Source: a virus (taxonomy: Duplodnaviria; Caudoviricetes). Taken from it: a stretch of DNA of 43,450 bases. The first letter of the stretch is position 1, and the number at the start of each line of letters is the position of its first letter. The position numbers were made by a program, and so were the translations under genes. The notes under the pieces are model-generated. The model ran no database searches and was not told the DNA's origin. It saw only the letters and a program-made list of their open reading frames with translations. Below are positions 9,585 to 31,608 of the stretch, piece by piece. The stretch is taken from IMG/VR virus record IMGVR_UViG_3300032280_000294, positions 1 through 43,450 of that record; one strand, 5' to 3'.

Positions 9585-10531
9585 TGAACACAAATTTAGT
9601 ATACGTTTTTTTAACCAGTAACTTTAATCAAAAGACATTACCACCAAGTAATGTTTGGAGTTCTACAACTCTGCCTTCATATTGCTTCGATACATTTAAA
9701 TTTAATTCAGCTAAATTTACAACTAGCTATGTTATAGCCGAGAAGAAAGAGATCTTACAATACAAGAATAGTTTCCCAGAAAATACAAAGTTTATTACCG
9801 TTGAAGATAATATATCCAATACAGAAGAGTTTAAAGAAGCTCAAGCTATAATAGATACATTATGGCCAAGACGGTATATGATGGATACGTTTTGGTACAC
9901 TACATTTATACGTGTTTTAGTTTTAGCAATCTTTGTTAAGAAGTATAAATTAGAAAATGTAATTCATATTGAAGCTGATAATTTAATCTTTAGCAAAGAT
10001 ATTGAAAAGGTTTTTAGTATCTTATCAGATGGGGAATTTGCATTCTGTAATGAGGCTCCACATGCATCTGCACCTTCTATTATTGCTTTTAAAGATAGTG
10101 AAGCCGGTTCTAATCTATTAAAGCAGCATATAACACTTTTAAGAAAAGGTGAAAATACATTAAACCCTTACGTAGGTCATTTTAGAAATTATATTACTGA
10201 TATGGCTTTCTTAGATATAATCTATCGTAATAAAAAGAATTATAAGATGCTTCCATGCTTACCCTTCGGTAACCAATCTGAAAATTTTGAAACTCTACAG
10301 ACAGTATTTGATCCTACTTCATATGGTCAATATCTAGGCGGTACAAACAACGGACATGAAAAAGGATTTATAGATCATCGTCATTATGTTGGTCAAGAGT
10401 TAGCTAGTAAAAACATAAACGTAGTTTTTGAAGATAACGCACCGTATCTTTATCTTAAAAATAAAGTACGCATCCCTATTTTTAATCTACACGTACATAA
10501 TAAAAAAAGCATACCGTTGTTTTTATCATGA
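9584..10531 (+). CDS. Putative glycosyltransferase-like protein
   Basis: Likely start ATG 9584 (TAATG overlap). IHIEADNL, DMAFL, FDPTSYGQYLGG, NLHVHNK. Confidence 0.55.
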   Translation: MNTNLVYVFLTSNFNQKTLPPSNVWSSTTLPSYCFDTFKFNSAKFTTSYVIAEKKEILQYKNSFPENTKFITVEDNISNTEEFKEAQAIIDTLWPRRYMMDTFWYTTFIRVLVLAIFVKKYKLENVIHIEADNLIFSKDIEKVFSILSDGEFAFCNEAPHASAPSIIAFKDSEAGSNLLKQHITLLRKGENTLNPYVGHFRNYITDMAFLDIIYRNKKNYKMLPCLPFGNQSENFETLQTVFDPTSYGQYLGGTNNGHEKGFIDHRHYVGQELASKNINVVFEDNAPYLYLKNKVRIPIFNLHVHNKKSIPLFLS

Positions 10532-11322
10532 TAGATGATGATAGTTTCATTATTACTCCGGATAGGTTTTTAAGCCTATCGCATGATTATATTTCTAGAT
10601 ACGGTACAAAGTTTGATTTTGATTCTACTAAAAATATAATTTTTGTTAAACCAGATTTTTTAGATGATTTTGTTACAAGTTATCTACCTAAGATAAACTA
10701 TCCTTTTGTATTAATAACCCACGATTCAGATCATCAGGTTAATGATAACTATATAGCTATTTTAAACCATCCTTATCTAAAACATTGGTTTGGTATGAAT
10801 TGTCACATACTACACGACAAGCTTACACCTATACCAATTGGTATGGCTAATGAAGTTTGGCCTCATGGAGATAAACAAGTTGTATTAAAAGTTATTAACG
10901 AACAGAATGAAAAAAAAAATTTAGTTTATTGTAACTTCGACATTAAAACAAATACTACAGCACGACATCACACTTTATCTGTACTTCAAAATACACCGTT
11001 TATTGATTTTGAATTCAATAGACTAACGTTTGAAGAGTATTTGCGTAAGCTCAGTACATACAAATTTGTTATATCTCCTCCCGGTAATAGTACAGATTGT
11101 CATCGTATATGGGAATCTATTTATGTAGGTACAATACCTATTTGTCTTAAGAGTATTCCTCTAGTAGGGTTTAAAACCTTACCTATATTGTTTATTAATC
11201 AATGGCAGGATATTACTGTAGATTTATTAGAGGAAAAATATAAACTTATTAAGGAGCGCAGTAAAGAAAAATCTGATTTTAATTTTTATAGTCGCTTAAT
11301 CAAAGAAACATCTAATTTATGA
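10528..11322 (+). CDS. Exostosin-like (GT47-like) glycosyltransferase
   Basis: ITHDSD, PIPIG, YKFVISPPGNSTDCHRIWESIYVGTIPI. Confidence 0.78.
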   Translation: MIDDDSFIITPDRFLSLSHDYISRYGTKFDFDSTKNIIFVKPDFLDDFVTSYLPKINYPFVLITHDSDHQVNDNYIAILNHPYLKHWFGMNCHILHDKLTPIPIGMANEVWPHGDKQVVLKVINEQNEKKNLVYCNFDIKTNTTARHHTLSVLQNTPFIDFEFNRLTFEEYLRKLSTYKFVISPPGNSTDCHRIWESIYVGTIPICLKSIPLVGFKTLPILFINQWQDITVDLLEEKYKLIKERSKEKSDFNFYSRLIKETSNL

Positions 11323-12125
11323 AAAAGTACTTTTTAACATGTTCGTATTATTCAAACGACCTCGTAAAAGAAAATCTGTTTAATACATACGGTAAACCAC
11401 AAATTAATAAATTCTGCGAACTGCACAATTTTAAATACATCGATATTAACGAAAAGAATTTTTCTCTTGTTCCGTTATTTGATGGACTGACGGCAACGGA
11501 GAAATCAAACAAGCAGTTTTATAGATGGCATGTAATTAAAACAAATCTCGATCAAGGTATTCTTAAGGACGGAGATATTGTTAACTATATTGATTCAGAC
11601 GTCTTTATTGTAAAACCTGAAGAACCCTTACAGACAAATAAGAGTTTTACATATGCTATCGATTCAGGTAATACTCATTGTACAGGTGTTTTCTCTTTAA
11701 AGATAAATGATTTCACAAGGAGATTAATAAATGGTATCCTCGATAAGGAACGACATAAGAAGCTTATTAAGAAATATATTTTCTGTGAGCATGATTACAA
11801 AGACGAAATTTTCTATTTTAATGATCAGCATGCTTATTATCATTTGGCTGGTATTAAACCTCATAGCTGGACATCGTTTTTTGAATTAGAGAATACAGGC
11901 TTTCATTCTTTGAAAAATGAAGATACTGTTTTTACTCTGGATGAACTTAAAGAAAATGTAGAGATACTTGGACCTGAATGGAACTGTACACATCTTTTAG
12001 AAGAAACAGGTGTTAACGGTGTTCATAACAAATATGACATTGTAAGAACTACAAAAGATAAAGTTATCTATCGTCATTTTGCTGGTGGACAAGAATTCCG
12101 TTTTGCAGAATACGCTAAGAGTTAA
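11319..12125 (+). CDS. Nucleotide-diphospho-sugar transferase (GT34/GT77-like)
   Basis: YIDSDVFI DxD motif, HCTGVF, NDQ, EWN, HFAG. Confidence 0.65.
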   Translation: MKKYFLTCSYYSNDLVKENLFNTYGKPQINKFCELHNFKYIDINEKNFSLVPLFDGLTATEKSNKQFYRWHVIKTNLDQGILKDGDIVNYIDSDVFIVKPEEPLQTNKSFTYAIDSGNTHCTGVFSLKINDFTRRLINGILDKERHKKLIKKYIFCEHDYKDEIFYFNDQHAYYHLAGIKPHSWTSFFELENTGFHSLKNEDTVFTLDELKENVEILGPEWNCTHLLEETGVNGVHNKYDIVRTTKDKVIYRHFAGGQEFRFAEYAKS

Positions 12126-12126
12126 T

Positions 12127-12774
12127 ATGAACCTAACAGATTTTTATAAAAAAATTTACGTTGTACATTATACGCTTTTAGTTGATAGAAAAAGATATCT
12201 CGTACAAAAGTTTAAAGAACTTGGTCTTGAGGATCGAGTAGAGTTCGTCGAAAAGTATCAGGACATATCAGAGTTAGAAGGAGTAACAACCACTTACACC
12301 GCTATTCCAAGAATTATGTGTATTAATCTTGCACATATCTATTGCTACGAAGAACAATTAAAAAATAACTACGATCATATTTTAATACTTGAAGATGATA
12401 CATATCTTGATACATTTGAACCTATTTCATTTTTAAATAAAGTAGCCGAAGAGTTTGTTGAAAATGACGGTGATGTTGCGTTTGTAGGTACTTGCTGTGG
12501 AATGAAGGTTGAAACACCCATACCCGGAAAAACATTATATTATAACCCAGATTATACAACCAGATGTGCTGGTGCATATGTTTTAAACAAACGTTGCGTA
12601 CAAACAATAATTGATACGATCAATCACTATGCTTCTATAGATCATATTTTAAACCCTGTTATAACAGAAAACAAATTACGCTGTTTGTGGTCGTATCCTG
12701 CCTTTGAACAAGGTTCAGAAAACGGAAAATATAAAAGCAACTTATTGCAATATCATCACGAATATCATACATAA
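12127..12774 (+). CDS. Family 25-like glycosyltransferase
   Basis: Likely start ATG 12127. KIYVVHY..LVDRK, LAH, ILILEDD, CAGAYVL, IDH. Confidence 0.8.
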   Translation: MNLTDFYKKIYVVHYTLLVDRKRYLVQKFKELGLEDRVEFVEKYQDISELEGVTTTYTAIPRIMCINLAHIYCYEEQLKNNYDHILILEDDTYLDTFEPISFLNKVAEEFVENDGDVAFVGTCCGMKVETPIPGKTLYYNPDYTTRCAGAYVLNKRCVQTIIDTINHYASIDHILNPVITENKLRCLWSYPAFEQGSENGKYKSNLLQYHHEYHT

Positions 12775-12778
12775 TATT

Positions 12779-13363
12779 ATGATTACCTACCCAACCGTAA
12801 ACGACTTCCCGAAAGCTTTTAATGAAGACATACATCTTCAACAAACTTTCATTGATCTTGTAAAGAAGCACGAACCGGATTTGATCCTTGAAACTGGTAC
12901 TTTCAAGGCCGATACAACAGAGTTTTTTTGCAGCTTTAATTTACCTGTAATTACAACTGAACTTGTTTCAGTGTATTTTGAGGAGTCAAAAATTAAATTA
13001 CAGAATCAAACTAATGTTAAGTTGTTTTTGGGAGATAGTGCTGTTTCTTTACAACAGAATTTTAGTTTAATTCAGGATAAGAAAATTGTAGCGTTTTTAG
13101 ATTCTCATTTTAATAATGATAAAGTTCTAGAAAGAGAATTAGAACTCTTTAAGCATTTAGAAAAGAAGCCTATACTTATTATTCATGATTTCTATGTACC
13201 TGGTACTGATCTTGGATATGATTCTTGGGATGGTCATCGGTACGATTATGTATTTTACAAATCATATTTTGATGGGCTGTATGGAGCTAACGGCTATGTA
13301 CATTCCTATAACAGTGAAGCAACCGGTGCCCGCAGAGGCGTCATTATTGTGGAGCCCGTATAA
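12779..13363 (+). CDS. Class I SAM-dependent methyltransferase (sugar O-methyltransferase-like)
   Basis: Likely start ATG 12779. ILETGTFKADTT, TTEL, LGDS, FLDSH, IHDF. Confidence 0.75.
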   Translation: MITYPTVNDFPKAFNEDIHLQQTFIDLVKKHEPDLILETGTFKADTTEFFCSFNLPVITTELVSVYFEESKIKLQNQTNVKLFLGDSAVSLQQNFSLIQDKKIVAFLDSHFNNDKVLERELELFKHLEKKPILIIHDFYVPGTDLGYDSWDGHRYDYVFYKSYFDGLYGANGYVHSYNSEATGARRGVIIVEPV

Positions 13364-14421
13364 TGAAAGTCTGTATTGTAGGTAACGATTATAAGCAACA
13401 GTTTCCGTTGTTAGAATACGGCGGCATTGAAGCAGCGTTTCAAGATGTTTGTATTGGTACGAACAAATATTTTAAAGATATAAAGTTTTGTGCTTTTGTA
13501 CCGAAAATACTTTTACCTGGTAGTGATGATTATGGTTTTAAAATAATTGAAACCGAAACTGTAGAAACGTCTAAGACAGGTCACCCTGCACATCTATTTG
13601 GTAATGAAGTTCGGGATATAATTAAAAAAGGTAATATCAAACCAGATATTATTTGGTGTTATAGTGCGTGGTCAGTACAAACATTACACGATCTAAACAT
13701 TCCCATAATCTGTACTATTATGGATAGCGGTGGTTGGGAAGATAATAAGTTCTTATACAAAGAGAATATACACTATCGCTTTTCTTCGAAGTATATTTAC
13801 GACCTTGTCTTTAAGGACGCAGACACTAATCCACGTATTAATAATATTAAAAAGCAGAGCTGTTGGTTTATTACAGGTGCTTCTGATGAGGAATATGATT
13901 TTGAAGAGAATAAGAGCGATTATATTCTTTGGACAGCAGGTTTGAACTGGGGTCCAACAGCTAAAGGTTTAGATATCTTTATCAAGTTAGCACGTCTTCG
14001 TACGGATCGTAGCTTTGTTGCATATGGCTCCGGTAACTTAGAGATTGAGAACAGACTTAAAGAACTTAATTGCGAACTAAACAATTTTTATTACGGTGGA
14101 CCTTTACCGAGAGGTTTTATTCATAAGAATGCATTTAGTAAAGCTAAAATGTTTGCTTTCTTAACACAAATACCTGAAGCATTTGGTAGAACAGGTCTTG
14201 AAGCTATTACTAAAGGTACACCAGTACTTGGTTCAACTAAAGGTGCAGTACCTGAACTTTACGGGCCTGCTGGTAAATGTACTGATAGCTTAGAAGAAAT
14301 GTCAAAAATTATTGACATGACTTTTGACACAAAAGAAGTTTTTAATTACGCACAAAAGTTCCATATTAAAAACGAAGTTCAGTTTTTAATTGATAAAAGC
14401 GTAGAAATTATCGGTAAATAA
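13363..14421 (+). CDS. GT-B (family 4-like) glycosyltransferase
   Basis: MKVCIVG, YGGIE, KGLD, EAFGRTGLEAITKGTPVL (EX7E). Confidence 0.88.
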   Translation: MKVCIVGNDYKQQFPLLEYGGIEAAFQDVCIGTNKYFKDIKFCAFVPKILLPGSDDYGFKIIETETVETSKTGHPAHLFGNEVRDIIKKGNIKPDIIWCYSAWSVQTLHDLNIPIICTIMDSGGWEDNKFLYKENIHYRFSSKYIYDLVFKDADTNPRINNIKKQSCWFITGASDEEYDFEENKSDYILWTAGLNWGPTAKGLDIFIKLARLRTDRSFVAYGSGNLEIENRLKELNCELNNFYYGGPLPRGFIHKNAFSKAKMFAFLTQIPEAFGRTGLEAITKGTPVLGSTKGAVPELYGPAGKCTDSLEEMSKIIDMTFDTKEVFNYAQKFHIKNEVQFLIDKSVEIIGK

Positions 14422-14435: not shown

Positions 14436-16232
14436 GTGCGAGTAGTCAATTTTAAAAAACTTACTATAAAGAACTTTTTGTCTGTTGGTCAGACACCGGT
14501 TACTATAAACTTTGAGCCTGGAATCAGTGTGATTACAGGTATCAATTACGATAAAGAAGACTCAAAAAACGGTGTTGGTAAATCAACAATTATTGATGCT
14601 CTATACTTTGCGCTTTTTGGTACCACGATTAGAGAGTTAAACAAAGATCTAATTGTAAACTCAATTACGAAAGACAAATGTGAAGTTGAATTAGATTTAC
14701 AACTAACAACAAGTCAAGGAACTAATACGTTTAATATCAAACGCACACTTCAACCAACTAAGTGCTTTATAACTAAAGATGGTGTAGACGTTACGCGTTC
14801 GACATTACCAAAAACGAATGAGTTTATACAAACTTTAATAAATTCATCAGGACCAGTTTTTCAAAATTCGGTCATTATGACCATAAACAACACGGTTCCG
14901 TTTATGGCTCAATCGAAAGTTGAGAAGAGAAAGTTTATTGAAAGCGTACTTAACTTGGAGGTTTTCTCTAAAATGCTTCTCCGTGCAAGAGATGAATATA
15001 ACGAACTAAAAAGAAGTTACGATATTATTTACGCTAAAAAAGAAACACTTGAAAAGCAATATAATTTAAACAATCAACAACTTGAATTGTTTGAGACTAA
15101 TAAGAGAAACAAAATAGAAGATTTAAAGAATAAAATTGCTGTTAATTTAACAACAATTGAATCTTATAAAGAAAAAATTACGAACATACCTGATGATCTT
15201 TATGAGCGTTTAGATGCTAAAGAAAACGATATTGATAATAGAAAAATAATGTTCAATACGGACTACGAAAATGCATCAGCGTCTGTTACTACTACACTTA
15301 CTGAGATAAGATTATTACAAAAACAATTACAAGATATTGAAGAGATTGGAGCTGTATGTACATCTTGTAATAGACCGTACTCTGAAGAAGATCAAAAGCA
15401 TAAAGATTCTGCTAAGAAGAATATTAATAAACAATTAACTAAGCTTAATAAAGATCTCGATAAAAATAAAGATGTAGTAAAAGGTTTCTTAGAGCAAAAG
15501 ACAGACCTTGAAAATGAATCTGCTGATATTCTTAAAAAGAGAAACGCTGTTAACTCTATATTACAAACCAATACCGGTCTGCAAAGTAAAATAGATTTTA
15601 TAAAAGATAACAATTTTACTTTAAACGAATCTGTTATTAGTGCACAGAAAGAAACAAATACTTTATTAGAAGAAGCAGTTAGAGATATAAAAATAGAGTT
15701 AGATGTTTATACAGATGAACTCGATACTATTAATAAAAACTTAAATGTTTTAGATAGTGTTAAATTTGTAGTATCCGAAGAAGGTGTCAAAGCTTATATT
15801 GTTAAAAAGGTTCTTAAATTGCTTAATACTCAGTTAAAGTACTATCTCAATCGACTGCAAACAAATTGCATTTGTGAATTTAATGAGTATTTTGATGAAG
15901 TCATCTACGATGAAAAAGGTGAATTAAAATCATATTTTAACTTCAGTGGAGGTGAAAGAAAGAGGATTGATTTAGCTTGTCTCTTTGCTTTCTTAGACGT
16001 ACGTCGTATGCAAGGAGATATTAACTTCACGACTGTATTCTATGATGAGTTATTAGACTCATCGCTCGATGATAAGGGTGTACAGCTTGTTGTTCATCTC
16101 CTTCGTGAACGTTTTAATAAAAACAATGAGTCATGCTTTATTGTAACCCATAGAGGTAGTGCAATTCTTACAAAAGTCGATAGAACTATTAACCTTGAAA
16201 AAAGAAACGGCTTTACGTATATAGCTTCTTGA
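14436..16232 (+). CDS. 46: Recombination ATPase gp46 (Rad50/SbcC-like)
   Basis: KNFLSVG, NGVGKS, coiled coil with CTSC zinc hook, FSGGE, FYDELLD, VTH. Confidence 0.95.
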   Translation: MRVVNFKKLTIKNFLSVGQTPVTINFEPGISVITGINYDKEDSKNGVGKSTIIDALYFALFGTTIRELNKDLIVNSITKDKCEVELDLQLTTSQGTNTFNIKRTLQPTKCFITKDGVDVTRSTLPKTNEFIQTLINSSGPVFQNSVIMTINNTVPFMAQSKVEKRKFIESVLNLEVFSKMLLRARDEYNELKRSYDIIYAKKETLEKQYNLNNQQLELFETNKRNKIEDLKNKIAVNLTTIESYKEKITNIPDDLYERLDAKENDIDNRKIMFNTDYENASASVTTTLTEIRLLQKQLQDIEEIGAVCTSCNRPYSEEDQKHKDSAKKNINKQLTKLNKDLDKNKDVVKGFLEQKTDLENESADILKKRNAVNSILQTNTGLQSKIDFIKDNNFTLNESVISAQKETNTLLEEAVRDIKIELDVYTDELDTINKNLNVLDSVKFVVSEEGVKAYIVKKVLKLLNTQLKYYLNRLQTNCICEFNEYFDEVIYDEKGELKSYFNFSGGERKRIDLACLFAFLDVRRMQGDINFTTVFYDELLDSSLDDKGVQLVVHLLRERFNKNNESCFIVTHRGSAILTKVDRTINLEKRNGFTYIAS

Positions 16233-16264
16233 TAAAAGCTGTATTAGATTATAAATTATATTTT

Positions 16265-17518
16265 ATGCATCCATTCTCAGTAGTACCCACAGGTTTACAC
16301 TCCACTATAGGCGCCCCAATTGGTCTACCGGTCGGTATACCACAAGTACATAATGTACATCATTCCCCTATACGTGCACCGCTTCCCCCGCCTGAAGTAC
16401 CTGGTCAGGGACTACCCCGAGCTATTAACTACCTTGCTGACTATGGTGGTTGCAGCTTCTATCGATGCATGGCCCCTAACCACATGCTAAACCTTTATCA
16501 GAAGGCCGTAATAACAGAGTTAACGACAATGGTATTAGATCCTCGCTTTTATATGGGAATTTCTTCTGTAAAGGTACAGAGACAGGCAACACCCCATCAA
16601 AGAGAATTTATTAAACAGCTTAAAAACCTATCTAAAGATTTAGGGTTTAGACTTATCTACGAAATCGATGATCTTGTCTTTAGAGAAGATATTCCAGATT
16701 ACAATCGCAATAAGGATGCATTTACATCAGATGAAATCCGTAACAGCATTCTTGATATTATGGGTATGATGGATGAGATTACTGTTACGTGTGATTTCAT
16801 GAGAGATTACTTTATTGACAAAACAGGTAACAAGAACGTCACAGTTGTTCCTAACTATCTACTCAAGTGGTGGTTTGATCGTTACTATAACATAAGCGAT
16901 ATAGCCAAGAAATACGAAAAGAATAAGAGCAAGCCAAAGATTTCTATTTTTGCTTCAGGTACTCACGTTGACGTTGTCAACCGTGTAAATCAAAACGATG
17001 ACTTCGCTGCAGTTATTCAAGCTGTAATAAAGACCCGTAAGCAATTCCGTTGGCAGTTCTACGGTTGCTTCCCGCTACCTTTAAAGCCATTTATTGATAA
17101 TGGAGAGATTGAATTTAAGAACTGGGTACAGCTTCCAGATTTCCCACAAGCTATGGCAGAGTCTGATAGTGTACTTACATTCGCTGCACTACAGGATAAT
17201 AACTTTAATCGTGCTAAGTCTAATATCAAGTTAATAGAAGCGGGAGCTTTGGGTATACCGTGTGTTTGCCCTGATATGGTAACATATAAGGATGCACTGT
17301 TAAAATACAAGACTGGGGATGAGCTTATTGATCAGATCAAGTTTGCCTTGAAGGATCAAGACAAGTACATTAAGCTTTGTAAGCAGTCAAGAACATATTC
17401 TAGTAACTTCTGGCTTGAAGACGAGAAGAACCTTAACAAGCATTTGGAAGTTTATACAACTCCTTTTGGTTCTGATCAAAGAAAGTTCTTGCTGGAAAGT
17501 AATCCAAAAAAGTCTTGA
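16265..17518 (+). CDS. GT-B fold glycosyltransferase between gp46 and DNA polymerase
   Basis: Likely start ATG 16265. ADYGGCSFYR, YEIDD, NNFNRAKSNIKLIEAGALGIP. Pro-rich N-terminus. Confidence 0.8.
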   Translation: MHPFSVVPTGLHSTIGAPIGLPVGIPQVHNVHHSPIRAPLPPPEVPGQGLPRAINYLADYGGCSFYRCMAPNHMLNLYQKAVITELTTMVLDPRFYMGISSVKVQRQATPHQREFIKQLKNLSKDLGFRLIYEIDDLVFREDIPDYNRNKDAFTSDEIRNSILDIMGMMDEITVTCDFMRDYFIDKTGNKNVTVVPNYLLKWWFDRYYNISDIAKKYEKNKSKPKISIFASGTHVDVVNRVNQNDDFAAVIQAVIKTRKQFRWQFYGCFPLPLKPFIDNGEIEFKNWVQLPDFPQAMAESDSVLTFAALQDNNFNRAKSNIKLIEAGALGIPCVCPDMVTYKDALLKYKTGDELIDQIKFALKDQDKYIKLCKQSRTYSSNFWLEDEKNLNKHLEVYTTPFGSDQRKFLLESNPKKS

Positions 17519-17548: not shown

Positions 17549-20092
17549 GTGTACAGGAACGTAGCTTATAACCCTAGAGAAGGAACTGTATATCTTCGTA
17601 CGTGGTCTGACGAAGGTGTAAGAATAGATACTGAAGTACCGTTTTCACCCTATCTCTTTACGGAGAAGAGAGACGGAACAGACGGTACTTCTATTTTTAA
17701 AACTCCTCTTAAGAAGCATTATTTTAAGAATAGCTTTGAACGTAATCAGTTCGTAAACGACGCATCAAACCCTCGCATCTTTGGTAATCTACCAATCGAG
17801 CAGCAATTTTTAATTGATAGGTATAATAATATTTGTGATAAAGAAGAGTTTAGTAAGTTCCCTCTAAAGGTATTCTTTATCGATATTGAAACTTATTCAC
17901 CGAATGAGTTTCCAGTACCTGAGAAAGCTAAAGACCCTGTAACGTTAATAACTATATTAGATACAGTAACAGGTAAGATTCATACCTGGGGACTTAAGAA
18001 CGACTATACCCCTAAGTTAAAGAATGTTACTTACTATAAATGTAATTCCGAGGAAGAGTTATTTGAGAAGTTTGTAAATTTCTGGAAAGCAGATCCACCG
18101 GATATTCTTACAGGGTGGAATACTGAGCAGTTCGATATCCCGTATATTATTCATCGTGCTAGAAAGCTTCTTAGTGAAGATTTTATTAAGCAGTTATCAC
18201 CAGTAAGAGAGCTTAACTATAGATCTAATTTTTCTAAGTTTGGAAGAGATGTAGGTCGTTGGTATATTACGGGGGTAAGTTGCTTAGATTACATGGAAAT
18301 ATATAAGACCTACTCTAAAGGAGATAGAGAATCTTTTTCTTTGAACTATATCGCAGAGTATGAACTCGGTGAAGGTAAATTAGCTATTAACGCTACTAAT
18401 CTTTCATCTCTTGCAGATCAAGACTGGGAAAACTTTGTTGACTATAATATTCAGGACGTTGATCTTCTCCGTAAGATGGAAGAAAAGCTAAACTATCTTA
18501 AGATCATTCGATTGCTTTCATATAAAGGCCTTACAAATTTTGAGCGCGCATTAGGTAAGGTATCGATTGTAACCGGGGCGATGGCTCTCCAGGCCCAGAA
18601 GCAAGGTTTTATTATTCCTACCTTTAAGAATGAAGGTGAGAGAGATTCTCTTGAAGGTGGATATGTAAGAGATCCGGAGAGGGGGTTAAAGAAAGGTATT
18701 GTAAGCTTTGACGTTAACTCTCTATACCCGAATACGATTATTACACTTAATATATCTGCAGAAACTAAACTAGGAAAGATTGTTACAGGAGATCCTGAGA
18801 CTGATAAAGAGATTCAGATTAAACTAGTTGACGGTAGTATATTCACCATTGCTACATCTAAGCTTAAGCAATTTCTTATAGATGAAAATGTATCCCTTTC
18901 AAAAGCCGGGGTATTATATTCACAGAAGTTTAAAGGTGTTTGCCCTAATTTGATTAATAGTATTTACGAAGAGCGTGTATATGCGCGTGGTCGTATGAAT
19001 GACCTTAAGAAGACAAAGAAATCCGACACCGATACTATATCTTCGATACAGTATTTTGATACATTGCAATATACGCTAAAGATTCTTTTGAATTCTATTT
19101 ACGGTACATTTGCCAATAAGCATTCGTCGTTTATGGATATCGATAATGCATCATCAATTACACTTACCGGGCAAGCGGTTGCTAAGGCAGGAGGCTCTAT
19201 TGTTAATGCTTACGCTAAAGAAAAATTCGGCGTTGATGAGTCATTAATTCTATCTGGTGATACAGATTCGTTGTATATAACAATACAACCTATTCTAGAT
19301 AAACTAGGCATACCGCTTGCTGAGAATAATGAAATTACGAAGAATACACACATTATTACAGACGCTATTGGTAAACATCTGAATACCGAAATTATTAGTT
19401 GGGCTCGTACAGAATTGAATTCAGCGGACCCACGCTTTGAGTTCAAACGAGAAGCTATAGCTGACGTAGGTACCTTCCTGGAAAAGAAACGATACATCCT
19501 ACATATCTTAGATGATGAAGGTGTATCTACGGATAAGTTCAAGTATGTAGGTGTTGAGGTAGCAAGATCGACAACACCGAAACAGGTTAAAGAGGTTATT
19601 AAGAGAACGATTGAAACTGCATTTAAAACACAGGATGTAAAGACAACTAACGCTGTATTTAGAGAAGCGTATGAAACGTTTTTAGCTCTACCGGTTGCAG
19701 AGGCTGCATTTAGAAAATCTGTTAAAGAATATGAAAAATACTCAACAGGTGCTACACTAAACAAATTCAACAAGGGAACACCTTGCCATGTTAAAGCAGC
19801 TATAGCATATAATCTTCTTTTAGAAAAGCTTACCCTCGGTACAAAATACGAAATGATTAGATCAGGGCAAAAGATAAAATACTTTTATGCTAACAAAAAC
19901 CCGTACGGTCTAGATGCTATAGCCTTTACATCTGAGTACCCGATTGAATTTGATAATATCAAAATCGATTATGATAAAATGTTTGGAAAGATTGTCGTAC
20001 CACCTATTGAGAGTGTGTACAATGCCATTGGATGGAGGTTACCGGTTATCGGTAAGGAAGTACAAACTGATCTATTTGACCTGTTCGGATAA
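17549..20092 (+). CDS. 43: Family B DNA polymerase gp43
   Basis: Exo motifs FIDIET, GWNTEQFDIPY, YNIQD. Pol motifs SFDVNSLYP, KILLNSIYG, SGDTDS, KKRY. C-terminal clamp-binding-like DLFDLFG. Confidence 0.97.
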   Translation: MYRNVAYNPREGTVYLRTWSDEGVRIDTEVPFSPYLFTEKRDGTDGTSIFKTPLKKHYFKNSFERNQFVNDASNPRIFGNLPIEQQFLIDRYNNICDKEEFSKFPLKVFFIDIETYSPNEFPVPEKAKDPVTLITILDTVTGKIHTWGLKNDYTPKLKNVTYYKCNSEEELFEKFVNFWKADPPDILTGWNTEQFDIPYIIHRARKLLSEDFIKQLSPVRELNYRSNFSKFGRDVGRWYITGVSCLDYMEIYKTYSKGDRESFSLNYIAEYELGEGKLAINATNLSSLADQDWENFVDYNIQDVDLLRKMEEKLNYLKIIRLLSYKGLTNFERALGKVSIVTGAMALQAQKQGFIIPTFKNEGERDSLEGGYVRDPERGLKKGIVSFDVNSLYPNTIITLNISAETKLGKIVTGDPETDKEIQIKLVDGSIFTIATSKLKQFLIDENVSLSKAGVLYSQKFKGVCPNLINSIYEERVYARGRMNDLKKTKKSDTDTISSIQYFDTLQYTLKILLNSIYGTFANKHSSFMDIDNASSITLTGQAVAKAGGSIVNAYAKEKFGVDESLILSGDTDSLYITIQPILDKLGIPLAENNEITKNTHIITDAIGKHLNTEIISWARTELNSADPRFEFKREAIADVGTFLEKKRYILHILDDEGVSTDKFKYVGVEVARSTTPKQVKEVIKRTIETAFKTQDVKTTNAVFREAYETFLALPVAEAAFRKSVKEYEKYSTGATLNKFNKGTPCHVKAAIAYNLLLEKLTLGTKYEMIRSGQKIKYFYANKNPYGLDAIAFTSEYPIEFDNIKIDYDKMFGKIVVPPIESVYNAIGWRLPVIGKEVQTDLFDLFG

Positions 20093-20308
20093 TTTTATTT
20101 CTTTAGTTTGAATGATACAAATCTCAGCACCTTTTCTTTTTAACTTATAAATTGTATCAACATTAAAATGTCTAAAAGCTTTTTTTATACATTCAGTTCG
20201 AGTAGAAGCGGCTGTATTCCATTGATACAATGGACCTATTTTTATTATATAAATTACTTTTTTTATAATAATGTATTGGATTTTCGGTTTTTTAGACATT
20301 ATTATCAA
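20072..20308 (-). CDS. Small basic hypothetical protein (start uncertain)
   Basis: Fills the otherwise empty 220-nt gap between gp43 and the dpdA-like gene, on the opposite strand. Confidence 0.4.
   Translation of the reverse strand: MIIMSKKPKIQYIIIKKVIYIIKIGPLYQWNTAASTRTECIKKAFRHFNVDTIYKLKRKGAEICIIQTKEIKLSEQVK
20277..20305 (+). promoter_or_regulatory. Sigma70-like promoter for the deazaguanine cassette
   Basis: TGGATT-17 nt-TATTAT, 8 nt before ATG 20314. Confidence 0.45.
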
Positions 20309-20313
20309 TACTT

Positions 20314-21147
20314 ATGTTATTAAGTCACGAGACCCCAATTTCTTTACTTGAAACCTCTAGAGGTTATAATGATTATGATTATGCACTGGTGCATTTGTTT
20401 AAAGATCATCCTGCATATTATGATTTTTTTAAAACTTCTGTACTTGCAGGTAGACACGTACTCTTAGATAATTCTATTTTTGAGCTTGGCACTGCTTATG
20501 ATTCCGATGAATTTGCTTATTGGATTAAAGAATTGCAACCTACAGAATATATTATACCAGATGTATTAGAAGACACTGAAGGTACTATTGAAAGCTTTAT
20601 TAAATTTACAGAAAAGTATCCCGATCTTCCGGGTAAAAAGATTGGAGTAGTACAAGGTAAGACATATAAAGAAATTGTTAAATGCTTTACATTCTTGAAA
20701 GACAAAGTTGATAAGATTGCAATTTCTTTTGATTATTCGTACTACCTTAATGAGGTTCCTTCATTTATAAGTAGCACAATAAAGATTCCAACGGATGTAA
20801 CACTCTATACAAATTGGAATCGTTATGCTTTAGGTAGAGCTAATTTACTACAAAGACTTGATCATGATGAATTAATTGATCATACCACAAAGATACATTT
20901 ACTTGGATGTGCTGTACCTTGGGAATTTTCTTTATATAAGAATAATTTTATTTGTAAGTATATCGAAACAATCGATACATCTAATCCTATTGTTGCTGCT
21001 ATTCTTGGGCATCGTTACAATATAAATATCGGCCTTCAAGATAAATGGTCTGTTAAGCTTGTTGATTTTATCAACTCTACGCTAGACGCAAAACAACTCG
21101 AAGATTCATTATATAATATTTCTATCTTTAGGAGGTTTTGTAAATGA
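20314..21147 (+). CDS. dpdA: TGT-fold deazaguanine transglycosylase (divergent DpdA-like)
   Basis: TGT-like motif series LLDNSIFE, IIPDV, GVVQG, IHLLG, IDTS. No CxCxxC zinc site. In an operon with queF. Confidence 0.7.
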   Translation: MLLSHETPISLLETSRGYNDYDYALVHLFKDHPAYYDFFKTSVLAGRHVLLDNSIFELGTAYDSDEFAYWIKELQPTEYIIPDVLEDTEGTIESFIKFTEKYPDLPGKKIGVVQGKTYKEIVKCFTFLKDKVDKIAISFDYSYYLNEVPSFISSTIKIPTDVTLYTNWNRYALGRANLLQRLDHDELIDHTTKIHLLGCAVPWEFSLYKNNFICKYIETIDTSNPIVAAILGHRYNINIGLQDKWSVKLVDFINSTLDAKQLEDSLYNISIFRRFCK

Positions 21148-21683
21148 GACCTTGGGTAGCTTTATTCAGTCAAACAGGTAGTGAGATTTATAATCTTTCA
21201 AAGAAACTTAACCGTGCACCAGATCTTATTATAACTAATAGACAAGATCTTGACGGCGTCAATCAGGGACTTATTAATGAATTTGGTGCTAAGATTTTCC
21301 AGATTAGTAAATCACCAAGTACTGAAGAGTATAGACATCATATACCTAAAGATGCGTTTGTTACATTACATGGCTGGTTGAGAATTGTTCCAGCAGAGAT
21401 TTGTGAAGAATTTGAAATTTATAATTTACATCCCGCTAACCTATTACTACACCCTCATCTAAAGGGTAAAGACCCTCAGAAGCGAGCTGCTCTAGAACTT
21501 TTAAAGTGGTCTGGAAATACTATTCATCGCTGTACATCAGAGTTAGATGGAGGCAAGGTTGAAGAGTATAGTACAGTATTAATTGAAGGATTACTTGAGT
21601 TTGAAGTTATTAATAAGCTTCACAAAGATGCTACAAATTTGTGGTTTACTTTTCTGAATAAGAGGCTAATATATAGTGCATGA
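21144..21683 (+). CDS. PurN-like formyltransferase (DpdN-like candidate)
   Basis: ALFSQTGS, LHGWLRIV, NLHP, GNTIH..TSELDGG, matching the N-H-D triad of formyl-THF transferases. ATGA-coupled to the dpdA-like gene. Confidence 0.8.
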   Translation: MRPWVALFSQTGSEIYNLSKKLNRAPDLIITNRQDLDGVNQGLINEFGAKIFQISKSPSTEEYRHHIPKDAFVTLHGWLRIVPAEICEEFEIYNLHPANLLLHPHLKGKDPQKRAALELLKWSGNTIHRCTSELDGGKVEEYSTVLIEGLLEFEVINKLHKDATNLWFTFLNKRLIYSA

Positions 21684-22228
21684 AGATAGCTATCTCAGGA
21701 GCTCATAGTCAGGGTAAAACTACTCTTGTAAATGCTTTGCAAGAAAGTGGTTTATTATATGGATTTAAGTTTAAAACTTCTCTAACTAGAGGAATGCAGG
21801 AAGCGGGGTATAGTATTAATGAAGATGGAGATGAGGTAACACAGCTTGCTATTATGGTTAAACATTTTCAGCGTCTCAGTGAAGATGGAAATATAGTTTA
21901 TGATCGCTGTGCGTTAGATGGTTATGCGTACTCTATGGCTTTACCTATAAGACTTAAAGTTTTAGATGTTATTAGAGATCTTTTTCTTTTAATGACAGAT
22001 AAATATGATATTATTTTTTATGTTGAACCGGAACTTCCGTTAATCGAAGACGGTCAACGTACAACGAAGAAAGAGTTTTTTGATAGAGTAGTGCAATCTT
22101 TTGAAGCTTTAATTAAGTCATTTTCTGTACCGGTAGTAAGAATAAAAGGTTCTGTTGAAGAACGAACAAAACAAGTTATACTAGCTATACAAAACAAAGA
22201 AAACGACAACAAATTTTACGAATTATGA
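21680..22228 (+). CDS. P-loop nucleotide kinase-like protein (AAA_28/dNMP kinase-like)
   Basis: GAHSQGKTT P-loop, YDRCALD (DR motif as in thymidylate-kinase-like enzymes), EDGQR lid. Confidence 0.75.
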   Translation: MKIAISGAHSQGKTTLVNALQESGLLYGFKFKTSLTRGMQEAGYSINEDGDEVTQLAIMVKHFQRLSEDGNIVYDRCALDGYAYSMALPIRLKVLDVIRDLFLLMTDKYDIIFYVEPELPLIEDGQRTTKKEFFDRVVQSFEALIKSFSVPVVRIKGSVEERTKQVILAIQNKENDNKFYEL

Positions 22229-23151
22229 GTACAACCAACCTAACTGATATTGCGTCGAAGACATTAGGATCTTCAGCTTCGTACGCGATTTATACAGAGC
22301 AATTTGATCCTACATTGCTTAATCCCATGCCTCGTGCACTTGCTCGAGCTGATCATAACATTACCGGTAATGAGTTTGTCGGTTTTGATACATGGCATTG
22401 CCATGAATCTACGTTTCTGCTTAACAACGGATTCCCTATAGCAGGTACACTAAAGTACACCTATAGAGCTGATTCTGATTTCATGGTAGAATCAAAATCT
22501 GCTAAGCTTTATCTTAACTCGTTTGATATGTGTAAGATGGGCAATACCCCTAAGGAAGCTATTATTGCCTATGAACTTCAAGTTAAACACGATCTTGAAG
22601 AAGCTCTTAAGACGCATGTAGATGTTTGCTTCTTCCCATCAGGTTCTGAGATCGACGGTCATGATGCCGTAGAAGGCTATAATGATTTGTATTGGAAGCT
22701 TTTTGAGAACGCTAAAGATATAAACATTACTGACTATTCTTCTCAGGAAGATCATCTAAAGTTTGTTAAGATTCACCCAGAGGATAATAATCCCGTTACA
22801 AGCCGTTGGTTTACGAATGCCCTGAGGTCTCGTTGTAGACATACAAAGCAGAAGGACACAGGTGCCGCTTACGTTCTTATCAAGTGTGATAACGGCATGA
22901 TGGTTGATCCAGAGTCTTTGTTTAAGCAGATTGTTTCATTGCGCGAGGTTAATGAGTTCCATGAATTTTGCGCTGAAAAGCTTTACACTACTATTATGAA
23001 GCATCCTGAAGTAACTGATTGCTGTGTTACTTTGCTTTATTCCCGTCGCGGTTCCCTGGATATTAATCCGGTAAGGGCGTCGAGTGTCGAATTATTGCCT
23101 GAAGCCTTATTCAATGTGTACAAATACACAAATAAAGCTATGGGACAATAA
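22225..23151 (+). CDS. queF: NADPH-dependent preQ0 reductase QueF (bimodular type)
   Basis: VESKSAKLYLNSF, LRSRC (catalytic Cys), NEFHEFC, YSRRGSLDINPVR. Confidence 0.92.
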   Translation: MSTTNLTDIASKTLGSSASYAIYTEQFDPTLLNPMPRALARADHNITGNEFVGFDTWHCHESTFLLNNGFPIAGTLKYTYRADSDFMVESKSAKLYLNSFDMCKMGNTPKEAIIAYELQVKHDLEEALKTHVDVCFFPSGSEIDGHDAVEGYNDLYWKLFENAKDINITDYSSQEDHLKFVKIHPEDNNPVTSRWFTNALRSRCRHTKQKDTGAAYVLIKCDNGMMVDPESLFKQIVSLREVNEFHEFCAEKLYTTIMKHPEVTDCCVTLLYSRRGSLDINPVRASSVELLPEALFNVYKYTNKAMGQ

Positions 23152-23197: not shown

Positions 23198-23587
23198 ATG
23201 AGTACACCAACCAACATCGTAACATTCCTCGACGCCATCGGCCGCACCCTCATCGGTGAGACGGTTGCTGAGAGCACTACAGCAGAGACTCTTGCTATCA
23301 AGAACCCTGCTATTGTCCACATCATGCCTAATCCTCAGACCGGGCAGCTTCAGCTTCAGATCCTTCCTCTTTTCTTTAAGGAGTTTCTCGCTGATAAGAC
23401 CGAGTCTACGGTTTGGTATTTCAAGCGCTCCAATCTGACTGAGAGCAAGGAGTTCGCCCTTGACTTTAAGCTAGTTGCGCAGTATCAGCAGATCTCTTCG
23501 TTCGTCCCTGACGCCGGAGCAGTACAGGGATCGGTAGGCCAGGAGCCTTCTGAGCCTTCTGTTGTTAAGCTTTTTGACGAAGAATAA
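23198..23587 (+). CDS. Conserved hypothetical protein, possible Sm-like fold
   Basis: Likely start ATG 23198. GRTLIGE..LAIKNPA..LQILP pattern, strongly biased codon usage. Confidence 0.55.
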   Translation: MSTPTNIVTFLDAIGRTLIGETVAESTTAETLAIKNPAIVHIMPNPQTGQLQLQILPLFFKEFLADKTESTVWYFKRSNLTESKEFALDFKLVAQYQQISSFVPDAGAVQGSVGQEPSEPSVVKLFDEE

Positions 23588-28058: not shown

Positions 28059-28892
28059 ATGCCAAGAATTAAAACTAACGCCGATATTCCCGATATTCAG
28101 AATACTACTGACGGGTTCCCTAATAAGTACATCCCTAAGGTTGGTACGCGCGATGCTACCCTACCTGTAAAGATCATCCGCAAGGATGGTACCGTTAATG
28201 AAGGATCTGGTAAGTTCAGTATGTATACCGATCTTACCCCTGAGAATAAGGGTACCAATATGTCCCGCTATCGCATCCTGATTGAGGAGGTCGTAGCTAA
28301 GGATGGTTATTATGTACATGAAGTTATTAAGGATCTTCTGCACGAGTGTAAGGCTCGTTTGAAGTCTGATAACGCCTACGTTAAGATTAAGTTTGATTAC
28401 TTTCTTAAGCGTAAGGCTCCTGTCTCTGGAGTTGAGTCCCACATGGATTATCGTGGTAATATGGAAGGCCGTCTTGTTGACGGTAAGGAGCGTCTGTATC
28501 TTACGGTTAACGTAATGTATGCATCCCTCTGCCCTTGCTCTAAGGAGATCTCCGATTACGGTGCCCATAATCAGCGCTCGGTAGCTGATGTTACCGTTGA
28601 GCTTGATGAGTCTAAGGGTATTATGTGGATTGAAGATATTATCGATATCGTTGAGAAGTCTTCTTCCGCCCCTATTATTAACGCTCTTAAGCGTGTTGAC
28701 GAGGCTTACCAGACTGAGCTTATGTATGAGAATCCGGTCTTCGTTGAAGATATGGTTCGTAAGGTAGCGGTCGAGCTTGATAAGGAGCTTGATAACCGTA
28801 TTAAGGATTACTCAGTCGTAGTAAACCATTACGAGTCTATTCACACTTCGGTGGCTTGTGCGTTCATCTCTGCTGGTAGGGAACTAAAATAA
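28059..28892 (+). CDS. folE2: GTP cyclohydrolase IB (FolE2)
   Basis: PDIQ, KGTNMSR, SLCPCSKEIS, GAHNQRS, LKRVDE, ENPVFVEDMVR, ESIH. Confidence 0.94.
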   Translation: MPRIKTNADIPDIQNTTDGFPNKYIPKVGTRDATLPVKIIRKDGTVNEGSGKFSMYTDLTPENKGTNMSRYRILIEEVVAKDGYYVHEVIKDLLHECKARLKSDNAYVKIKFDYFLKRKAPVSGVESHMDYRGNMEGRLVDGKERLYLTVNVMYASLCPCSKEISDYGAHNQRSVADVTVELDESKGIMWIEDIIDIVEKSSSAPIINALKRVDEAYQTELMYENPVFVEDMVRKVAVELDKELDNRIKDYSVVVNHYESIHTSVACAFISAGRELK

Positions 28893-28909: not shown

Positions 28910-28950
28910 AATCCTTGCATACGTAGAATAAATAAACGTATGCAAGGATT
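28910..28950 (+). promoter_or_regulatory. 15-bp perfect hairpin that sequesters the endonuclease ATG, with a late promoter in the loop
   Basis: AATCCTTGCATACGT (28910-28924) pairs with ACGTATGCAAGGATT (28936-28950). The loop AGAATAAATAA contains TAAATA. ATG 28940 lies in the 3' arm. Confidence 0.85.
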
Positions 28951-29728
28951 TACTTTTGAATATTTAAAACAACTTACAGTTGGAAAAAAAGAAGCAGGTA
29001 TATATGGAATATTCTGTGAAGCAAATAAAACTGTTTATATAGGCGCTTCAATTAATCTAAGAAGAAGATTGCCATCTCACAGATCTCATCTTAAAAAGAA
29101 TAAACACTGCAATATAGCTTTACAAAATACATTTAACAAATACGGTATTGATACCTTTCAATTTTTAATATTGGAATTATTTGATAATATTACGTCGCAA
29201 AATATAGTTGAAAGAGAATGTTTCTGGATTCAAAAATATAATAATTCTAAGGAAAAATATAAATGTTTAAATTTAGATGTACCTGTAAATAATTGGGATA
29301 AAGATCACGAGATTATAAATTCAAAAAGAAAAAAAATATACCAGTCTAAAGGTATTAAACCTAGTAGAGCTTATACACAAACAGAGGAATATCGCAACAG
29401 ACAAAGTGAAATATTAAAAGGTAGAAAATGTACCTGGCAAAAACAATTAAAAGAAGCTAGACATAAAAGACCTTTAACTGTTTATTCAATGCTTTATTCT
29501 ATACAGGACCCTGCAGGTAATATTCATAAAATATACACCTGGGAGACCTTGAAAAATTTTTTAAAGAGCTATAATATAGATAATAACATACCGTTTCATA
29601 AACGTATTAGTATTGAAAAACTCGTACGGGAAAAAGAAACTAAAGAATTTAAAATATTAGAAATAAACAGAATTAACGAAAACACTAAACAAATGACTAT
29701 AAAATATAAACAAGGAGACCTAAAGTAA
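28940..29728 (+). mobile_element. Free-standing GIY-YIG homing endonuclease (Seg/I-TevI-like)
   Basis: AGIYGIFC..VYIGASINLRRR..H, ERE, LN, then a basic linker and C-terminal domain. Visibly more AT-rich than folE2 next to it. Confidence 0.88.
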
Positions 29729-30113: not shown

Positions 30114-30828
30114 ACTACATAGAGAGAGTTTTATACAGAACTTTCTTTCCCCTGTTAGTCGTTTAGCTGATAATGTACCTATCTTTTTTACTGAAGAAGA
30201 GATTTATACAGTATGTGCTAACCAGGATGGTAGTGTAGTTCTACTAGCGTCTTATAATGTCGGTAATGATAAGTCATTTAAGATTAATTTACCTGATATT
30301 AAAAAGTTTGTTCGTCTTTTAGATTGTATAGAGGATGAAGAGCTTCTACTTGATGTAGAGAGCAATTACGTTAATTACGAAACCGATAGTGTACGGTTTA
30401 AGTATTTCTTACTTGAAGAAAGTTATATACAGCGTTGTCCTGCGACACCTGAAAAGATTAAGCAACTTCAATATGATACTACTTTTGATATACCTATTGC
30501 TAAGCTAAACGAAATACTTAAAGGTAGTACTATAACTACTGATTCAGATAAATTGTATCTCTATACAAGAGATAAGAAGATATATGCTGAATTAAACGAT
30601 AGAGAGAGACAGAACATTAATAGCATTACCTATCTCGTTACAGATGTATATGAAGGTAATGCACTCACTGCATGCATACCCTTTACATTAGAAAATATAC
30701 GTCTGCTTTCCGGTCTTAGGACAAATACCTTTAGTGTTAAGGTTAACAACAAGCTTAAGGTAGCTTTATTTGAAATAAAAAATAACTATACAACAATAAA
30801 ATTTGTTATTTCAGCACTTGTAAAATAA
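30097..30828 (+). CDS. 45: Sliding clamp gp45-like
   Basis: 243 aa with a two-domain alpha/beta pattern (INLPDIKKFVRLL, FTLENIRLL, terminal beta strand FVISAL). Replication context. Confidence 0.65.
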   Translation: MSSKIKLHRESFIQNFLSPVSRLADNVPIFFTEEEIYTVCANQDGSVVLLASYNVGNDKSFKINLPDIKKFVRLLDCIEDEELLLDVESNYVNYETDSVRFKYFLLEESYIQRCPATPEKIKQLQYDTTFDIPIAKLNEILKGSTITTDSDKLYLYTRDKKIYAELNDRERQNINSITYLVTDVYEGNALTACIPFTLENIRLLSGLRTNTFSVKVNNKLKVALFEIKNNYTTIKFVISALVK

Positions 30829-30853
30829 ACCTTACTAGTATAAATCTTTTTAT

Positions 30854-31219
30854 ATGTCAAACAAAATCACCACACTCGGATATATCCTTAAGCGCCTTCG
30901 TGACAGCGGTTACTATACGTATAAGATTTTTAACGAGTATTCACAGGTAGATCCACGAGCATGGACGATTGTAATCGACCCTGGTACAGCATCAATTTTT
31001 TGTACCTGTTATGTTAATGATCCGTACCTCGGTGAGTCATATTTTGAATTGTATGACGGTGGTCAGTTTATACCTGGACGTTTAAAGATTAAGACAAGCT
31101 CATTTGAAGTACTTGTCGAACACCTTGTAAAGTTTGGTGTAAATAATAAAGCTGCTGATTACAATCAGAGAAATACTATAACTAATACGAGCATTGAATT
31201 AGAAACCGTTGAAGCATAA
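30854..31219 (+). CDS. Hypothetical protein
   Basis: 121-aa ORF with TATAAATC upstream. Confidence 0.6.
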   Translation: MSNKITTLGYILKRLRDSGYYTYKIFNEYSQVDPRAWTIVIDPGTASIFCTCYVNDPYLGESYFELYDGGQFIPGRLKIKTSSFEVLVEHLVKFGVNNKAADYNQRNTITNTSIELETVEA

Positions 31220-31227
31220 ATATTGTT

Positions 31228-31608
31228 ATGCCAACCGGTGATAATACACCTAAGAAGAAAGTCAAAAGAACTAAAAAGACTATACAGCCAGGTCTTAGCG
31301 GAGACGCTGTACCGGATACAAAAATAGTTAAAGGAGATTTTCAGTCTATACCTGGGGTTGAAAGTTTAATCAAAGAAGCCTTCACAAGATTTTACGACGA
31401 TAAAAATCTTGAAAGGCAGAAGATGAAAGATCTACAACACTTAGATAGTGTTGTAGAAGAATTTTTAAAAGCATATATTATTATAGGTTACGATCTTAAT
31501 GGAGAGAAGGTGCATATTTTTCATGCGGAAAATTCAATGGAAAAAGACTCTCTCATCGAACATATGAGAACTACTTTAATGTCATATCTCAATAAAGAGA
31601 ATAATTAA
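31228..31608 (+). CDS. Hypothetical protein upstream of terminase
   Basis: 126-aa ORF with CATAAATA 5 nt upstream. Confidence 0.6.
   Translation: MPTGDNTPKKKVKRTKKTIQPGLSGDAVPDTKIVKGDFQSIPGVESLIKEAFTRFYDDKNLERQKMKDLQHLDSVVEEFLKAYIIIGYDLNGEKVHIFHAENSMEKDSLIEHMRTTLMSYLNKENN

Follow-up and report, generated by a model that had tools for sequence, protein, structure and literature searches.

A small kinase gene accompanies dpdA3 in a T4-like phage cassette predicted to replace guanine with formyl-preQ1

The DNA analysed here, 43,450 nucleotides of the IMG/VR record IMGVR_UViG_3300032280_000294 (hereafter the window), comes from the genome of a T4-like phage, as judged from gp47/gp46, UvsX, gp41, gp32, terminase and tail genes recognised by inspection and from the DNA polymerase gene, gp43, recognised by Pfam. 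Behind gp43 lies a cassette of four genes encoding DpdA3, a 7-deazaguanine transglycosylase-family protein, the PurN-like formyltransferase DpdN, a small P-loop kinase (K1) and the preQ0 reductase QueF. Sequence comparison makes it highly probable that this is the DpdA3-DpdN-kinase-QueF block of formyl-preQ1 phages. Because it matches phage immuto_2-6A gene for gene, the cassette and the formyl-preQ1 part of the pathway belong to a published, known system; what matters here is the kinase, which has been overlooked. Its gain and loss together with DpdA3 suggests that the modified base is assembled at the level of free nucleotides, ahead of DNA replication. We count the phage as one more example of the published fdPreQ1 system and as a challenge to the published mechanism, a position that is well supported but unproven.

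Comparison of the four genes across phages had been proposed in a first-pass annotation, made from the letters of the sequence alone. Loci were the best 80 of 561, 541, 514 and 279 matches, and the sample leans for that reason towards close relatives of the query. Together with the window, 166 loci formed 79 clusters at 90% identity, 47 of them with 3 kb on both sides of DpdA3 (32 were dropped); a kinase gene lay within 3 kb in 43/47 of these, and in 16/19 at 70% identity. A narrow control centred on another DpdA family, DpdA1 (85 loci in 54 clusters, 45 with full flanks), and drawn mostly from one phage group, showed a small P-loop open reading frame (ORF) in 0/45 clusters at 90% and 0/7 at 70%. 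In the reverse direction, 80 kinase loci gave 41 clusters, of which 35 had 2 kb upstream; DpdA3 was present in all 35, within 3 kb in 34. A DpdA2 control proved unusable, with only two near-identical loci, and the VH7D record has no annotated kinase near dpdA2.

When presence was mapped onto a DpdA3 tree of 45 clusters, counting from 3 kb upstream to 8 kb downstream of DpdA3, the kinase was found in 44, QueF in 41 and DpdN in 32, the last with five changes. The kinase thus follows DpdA3 rather than the final side chain, and it persists where DpdN or QueF has been lost: in close relatives such as loci L035 and L145, only DpdA3 and the kinase are kept in the slot after gp43. Since the same block recurs in dozens of phages, the cassette is not a chance arrangement.

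The association extends to divergent phages. In 6/6 annotated DpdA3 phages examined, among them all three reported to be fully substituted (CP220, immuto and phiST), a P-loop gene either adjoins dpdA3 or lies no more than three genes away. These genes are of different types, that of the window in CP220 and immuto, AAA_18 in phiST and MA9V-3, and a third, with weak Pfam matches, in Youna2 and BSP7; this has the look of a single function taken over by non-orthologous genes. DpdA3 gave 11 matches among 185,579 species genomes, all in assembled-genome contigs, and the kinase accompanied it in seven (two further contigs, L412 and L415, end early).

Complete genomes allowed the kinase to be followed beyond its immediate neighbourhood. 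A 218-kb relative, G001, is syntenic across the whole window, and its cassette proteins share 63% (DpdA3), 88% (DpdN), 72% (K1) and 83% (QueF) identity with those of the window; it also encodes a second kinase, K2, which forms a clade of its own. Five further genomes, the largest contigs of a K2 search and all 99–100% complete, bring the sample to six. Three of the five have DpdA3, QueD and an extra K1-type kinase and two have none of these, so that K2 is present in 6/6 genomes and DpdA3, QueD and K1 in the same four, being absent from the other two. Small as the sample is, this pattern separates K1 from a housekeeping role. Nor is the link one of mere adjacency, since the K1-type kinase lies 71 kb from DpdA3 in G006 and 53 kb in G008. 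The two kinases could serve two successive phosphorylations. GMP reductase, considered as a further module component, was discarded, being present in 2/5 genomes, one of them without DpdA3.

Some details of arrangement in these genomes may be recorded. In G006 and G008 (loci L420 and L421), DpdA3 directly follows gp43 and is itself followed by a gene that by eye is ThyX-like, K1 having moved behind the major capsid gene. At 177614-179777 and 30259-31586 of G001 (L344 and L336), K2 lies behind queD and queE, and a gene resembling class II glutamine amidotransferases comes after queC; 208966-209529 holds another QueD-like gene.

We lean slightly towards a pre-replicative route as the explanation of the kinase. 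FolE2 and QueD, QueE and QueC, the last three unseen in the window, would make preQ0, which QueF would reduce to preQ1; DpdA3 would exchange the guanine of free deoxyguanosine (dG) or dGMP for preQ1, and DpdN would formylate its amine. K1 would phosphorylate the modified unit, presumed to be a poor substrate for host kinases, and gp43, which would also have to read the modified G, would insert the modified triphosphate. Chances are about even that DpdA3 is a TGT-family (tRNA-guanine transglycosylase) enzyme that has departed from polynucleotides, its exchange on free dG or dGMP being coupled to a dedicated kinase in a pre-replicative swap of G across the whole genome. We infer every enzymatic step in this phage, whereas gene identities, folds, order and co-occurrence were observed. 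The first-pass annotation had suggested the same pre-replicative route from the presence of a kinase gene in the operon; kinase co-occurrence now lends it comparative support, but it is still unproven and contradicts the model stated in PMC10516641.

DpdA3 was identified by sequence homology, being 44.8% identical to the protein of immuto_2-6A (over 99% of its length), 45.9% to that of CP220 and 26% to that of phiST, all of them DpdA3 entries in table DS1 of PMC10516641. Profile comparison, also proposed at first pass, placed the protein less well: it has no Pfam or NCBIfam family (it was assigned to phrog_19058), a PDB sequence search with its profile gave no match, and comparison with DpdA1 was not significant. 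Its predicted model (pLDDT 92.5) matches archaeal TGT (1iq8; Z 17.0, root-mean-square deviation 3.0, 231 aligned) and bacterial DpdA (7ui4; Z 16.8, deviation 3.1, 227 aligned) equally well. This tie, at Z 16–17, would suit a role in queuosine-like modification of tRNA, or as host-boosting metabolic genes, with plain dG in virion DNA. Such a role is nevertheless extremely improbable: an orthologous block is found in a phage whose DNA shows no detectable dG, DpdA3 has neither a zinc site nor a Pfam TGT match, and its few matches among species genomes were confined to assembled-genome contigs.

The TGT-fold motifs claimed for this gene at first pass are present, and each of D52 (LDNS), D83 (PD), H195 (HLLG) and D221 (IDTS) is retained by at least 95% of 185 homologues; by order and motif, rather than superposition, they can be tentatively paired with D95, D130, H181 and D256 of bacterial DpdA. 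After the predicted nucleophile Asp there follow a median of 57 residues in DpdA3, compared with 101 in DpdA1, and this part holds no zinc-type Cys cluster of the kind that forms the structural zinc site of TGT (only C124 and C199 are conserved). The insertion equivalent to the shortened C-terminal part forms a DNA-binding surface in bacterial DpdA, and DpdA3 lacks most of it. Conserved basic positions number 6 in DpdA3 and 14 in DpdA1, although the latter number is inflated by the lower diversity of the DpdA1 set. Counts of four-base palindromes were uninformative.

This anatomy also bears on a rather unlikely alternative, in which DpdA3 would swap guanine for preQ1 in finished DNA, DpdN would formylate the base there, and the kinase and a phosphoribosyltransferase (PRTase) would recycle the guanine set free or maintain the supply of canonical dNTPs. 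All DpdA enzymes tested act on DNA, and PMC10516641 proposes as much for the whole family, calling all such modifications post-replicative; the same authors describe the groove of their DpdN model as mildly basic. DpdA3 also retains the fold common to TGT and DpdA, along with the conserved aspartates; no dGTPase was found in the lineage, and a purine PRTase gene co-occurs with DpdA3 in the same four of six complete genomes as K1, a pattern that salvage fits equally well. DpdA1 phages, however, free guanine from up to 30% of positions and yet had no kinase nearby in any of the 45 control clusters; the insertion that would bind DNA is short in DpdA3; and these genomes already encode a generic paralogue, K2. 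The PRTase was rejected as a universal part of the module, as it occurs in only 1/5 other named DpdA3 phages, compared with 5/5 for the kinase.

Environmental phages often carry DpdA3, which formed 4,049 clusters at 90% identity. Three of the four longer matches (P0121, P0123 and P0124) join DpdA3 to QueF, and the fourth (P0122) carries an unannotated N-terminal domain of ~315 aa; at L416:4998-6362, DpdA3 is fused to DpdN, with the kinase directly upstream. The DpdA3-QueF and DpdA3-DpdN fusions bind the genes into one pathway and fit either timing. No DpdA3-kinase fusion was seen among the four longer matches, though one of the expected ~460 aa would fall within the first search, of whose 4,049 matches 120 were listed.

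K1 has a P-loop (GAHSQGKTT) and a DRC motif, in line with the P-loop and DR motif reported at first pass, and is 32–36% identical to a 'thymidylate kinase' encoded beside DpdA3 in Campylobacter and immuto phages (32% for immuto). Its score against the thymidylate kinase family TIGR00041 was 23.6 bits, below the cut-off of 83.25. The model was closest to the NadR kinase domain (Z 17.6), followed by vaccinia thymidylate kinase (Z 15.7) and fly deoxynucleoside kinase (Z 14.8), and profile and model together match NadR ribosylnicotinamide kinase, thymidylate kinases and deoxynucleoside kinases. The predicted fold is therefore that of small-molecule nucleoside/nucleotide kinases, but the earlier label of nucleoside monophosphate kinase has to be withdrawn, because nucleoside kinases match equally well or better. 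The position of the Glu after strand 2, which we take to be the catalytic residue in deoxynucleoside kinases and NadR, is occupied by Glu in 106/157 K1 homologues and by Ser in K1 of the window.

Several observations, besides the relatedness of the sampled loci and the narrowness of the DpdA1 control, weigh against pre-replicative synthesis. The K1 family occurs without DpdA3 in Streptomyces phages and as the paralogue K2, and two assembled-genome DpdA3 contigs show no kinase, L409 within 5 kb and L411 in its available DNA. Adjacency to the polymerase, a cue for the first-pass annotation, does not discriminate, as a polymerase lies within 3 kb in 63/70 DpdA1 loci too; nor can DpdA3 and DpdA1 be told apart by net charge (median pI 5.3 and 5.7), and one published DpdN accompanies DpdA1 (table DS1 of PMC10516641). 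An enzyme that destroys dGTP was sought in vain: among five complete relatives MazG was found in 0/5 twice and PRA-PH in 0/5, and a Pfam scan of 225 of the 283 ORFs of G001, most of them without a family, revealed none. MazG-like genes lie beside DpdA3 in other lineages only (immuto, phiST and L414). Without such an enzyme, the dGTP that ribonucleotide reductase supplies would be a competing substrate, barring discrimination by gp43, and the pre-replicative model leaves the exclusion of dGTP in this lineage unexplained. It is also possible that the same data reflect guanine salvage.

Full substitution without a dGTPase would be accounted for by a hybrid route, in which a PRTase joins the deazaguanine to phosphoribosyl pyrophosphate, the kinase and the phage ribonucleotide reductase make the dNTP, and the role of DpdA3 is limited to clearing the guanine that remains in DNA or in the dG pool. 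G001 encodes PRTase, ribonucleotide reductase and K1, and a PRTase gene lies in the immuto cluster; yet CP220, Youna2, MA9V-3 and BSP7 have no PRTase, that of G001 looks by inspection like an ordinary hypoxanthine-guanine PRTase, and the DpdA3-QueF fusions link DpdA3 directly to free preQ1. We consider this hybrid improbable, and retain the pre-replicative route, in which DpdA3 itself acts on free dG or dGMP.

Guanine in the DNA of this phage is likely replaced by formyl-preQ1, as sequence comparison indicates, because immuto_2-6A shares the gene order and has fdPreQ1 DNA, FolE2 is encoded in the window, and QueC, QueD and QueE in G001; the formyl-preQ1 prediction of the first-pass annotation is upheld by the gene-for-gene match. 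In immuto_2-6A DNA, fdPreQ1 was found and dG was undetectable, with no dG peak (PMC10516641). The report of DpdN and formylated preQ1 in phage DNA, mentioned at first pass, is real, and in PMC10516641 too the formylation of preQ1 by DpdN is a prediction. DpdN of the window scores above cut-off for PF00551, and its sole match in 50,697 phage records was immuto DpdN (43.7% identity). The PurN-type triad claimed for it is present, and at least 85% of 104 homologues retain each of N94, H96 and D135. It is a bare PurN domain whose N-terminal LFSQTGS aligns to LFSGNGS of PurN, a loop that we take to bind the substrate 5′-phosphate. As a short PurN-like protein whose gene adjoins DpdA3, with QueF co-encoded, it groups with YP_010114479, and it was accepted as DpdN on these grounds.

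QueF, described at first pass as complete, is indeed so. Bimodular QueF is recognised by an NADPH motif, E(S/L)K(S/A)hK(L/Y)(Y/F/W), a catalytic Cys and FHE, and the protein of the window has two T-fold modules with ESKSAKLY at 89, catalytic motifs at 200–211 (LRSRC at 200) and FHE at 245, while its TIGR03138 score of 163 is under the cut-off of 293. It is 38% identical to QueF of VH7D, which complemented an E. coli queF deletion (PMC10516641); according to published work, QueF acts on free preQ0, reducing it to preQ1. Of the preQ0-pathway genes, the window has FolE2 and QueF only, QueC, QueD and QueE having been seen in G001. FolE2, likely the first step towards preQ0, is 95% identical in G001; its slot holds canonical FolE in L019, L034, L035 and L145. 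A GIY-YIG homing endonuclease gene (28940-29728) follows FolE2 and has no match in G001.

Table 1. Coordinates of the cassette genes, the preceding polymerase gene and FolE2 in the window.
Feature	Position	Strand	Remarks
Family B DNA polymerase, gp43-like	17549..20092	+	PF00136 + PF03104; 82% identity to polymerase of complete relative G001
DpdA3 (7-deazaguanine transglycosylase family, minimal TGT-type TIM barrel)	20314-21147	+	277 aa
DpdN (PurN-like formyltransferase, predicted preQ1 formylation)	21144-21683	+	179 aa, PF00551
K1 (small P-loop nucleoside/nucleotide kinase, predicted NadR/deoxynucleoside kinase/thymidylate kinase fold)	21680-22228	+	182 aa, PF13521, phrog_2107
Bimodular QueF, preQ0 reductase	22225-23151	+	308 aa, PF14819 + PF14489
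FolE2 GTP cyclohydrolase	28059-28892	+	PF02649; NF010200 over cut-off; beyond cassette coordinates

The coordinates of the four ATGA-coupled ORFs (Table 1) stand as first described, with an ATGA overlap at all three junctions, and AGGAGG precedes dpdN. The cassette follows gp43, though not 'right after' it as had been claimed: a 221-bp gap separates the end of gp43 at 20092 from dpdA3 and holds an antisense 78-aa ORF (20072-20308, minus strand), homologues of which were found in 7/83 clusters and in G001 (47%). A promoter and terminator scan found none above shuffled background (18 compared with 14.0 ± 3.4).

Other genes nearby deserve mention. A 129-aa gene without a family (23198-23587) lies between queF and uvsX, a slot that it keeps in 20 clusters with or without dpdN or queF, and in G006 and G008. 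Roughly ten glycosyltransferase-like or sugar-modifying genes, mostly judged by eye, lie between gp47 and gp46 (5859-14421), and a glycosyltransferase gene directly before gp43 (16229-17518) is kept in 19/83 clusters; Pfam glycosyltransferase domains were confirmed for 13363-14421 and 16229-17518 only. The glycosyltransferase adjoining gp43 may act as a second enzyme of DNA modification. At L129:12250-13407, in a locus without dpdN, a gene that by eye is serine hydroxymethyltransferase-like directly follows queF. Near queC at L047:12870-13088 and seven other loci (8 DpdA3 clusters) is encoded a small helical protein with an EELMD motif, which matches PHROGs of unknown function only and is a candidate nucleotide pyrophosphatase.

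Synthesis at the nucleotide level is not a new idea: PMC6884629 notes an earlier proposal of a modified dGTP for Campylobacter phages. In the open-access literature, no paper was found that names the kinase as the agent, and no published kinase or pre-replicative role for DpdA3 systems. The word 'kinase' is absent from the available text and supplement of PMC10516641, where phiST CGPG_00066 was set aside as having no homologues in other modifying phages, and where DpdA3 alone gave no modification in E. coli although DpdA2 worked. This failure speaks for the pre-replicative route, as does the free ADG nucleoside reported in CP220-infected cells. Three phages replace all of their guanine, and the comparative data point to the kinase as a missing component of the mechanism.

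Among known systems, immuto_2-6A is the closest, with an identical order of the same four genes next to a DNA polymerase gene (dpdA3, a small gene, dpdN, 'thymidylate kinase', queF, then polymerase) and identities of 45, 44, 32 and 39% for DpdA3, DpdN, K1 and QueF. The window differs in being T4-like, with a family B polymerase upstream rather than a family A polymerase downstream, FolE2 instead of FolE, and no spacer gene; QueC, QueD and QueE lie elsewhere, as seen in G001, and its lineage yielded no MazG/PRA-PH gene. CP220 (dADG) and phiST (dDG) likewise have a P-loop kinase-like gene adjacent to DpdA3 and reported complete replacement of G (for dG, shown for immuto and phiST only and reported for CP220, according to PMC10516641). 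Neither, however, has QueF or DpdN beside DpdA3, and they therefore carry a different base; phiST differs further in its unrelated AAA_18-type kinase and in having MazG and DpdL. DpdA1 (9g), DpdA2 (VH7D, nt-1) and bacterial DpdA (7UI4) share the TGT-type barrel, the base-exchange residues and a FolE/Que-fed supply, and DpdA1 also lies beside a polymerase, but these enzymes act on DNA, substitute partially, have a longer C-terminal insertion and lack a kinase neighbour.

If the pre-replicative route holds, the system would also resemble the T4 hydroxymethyl-dC pathway, the proteins of which are gp42, gp1 and gp56, and the PurZ/DatZ/MazZ pathway of Z-genome phages, each pairing a nucleotide-level modifier with a dedicated kinase; the T4 modification genes lie between gp43 and uvsX, as the cassette does. 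There is no homology with either pathway, base exchange by a transglycosylase would be a different chemistry, and an enzyme that destroys the canonical dNTP was not found here. A pre-replicative route, if true, would add a new reaction to those of the TGT fold and a guanine counterpart to the T4 hydroxymethyl-dC and Z-genome pathways, and it would offer a means of producing DNA in which every G is substituted.

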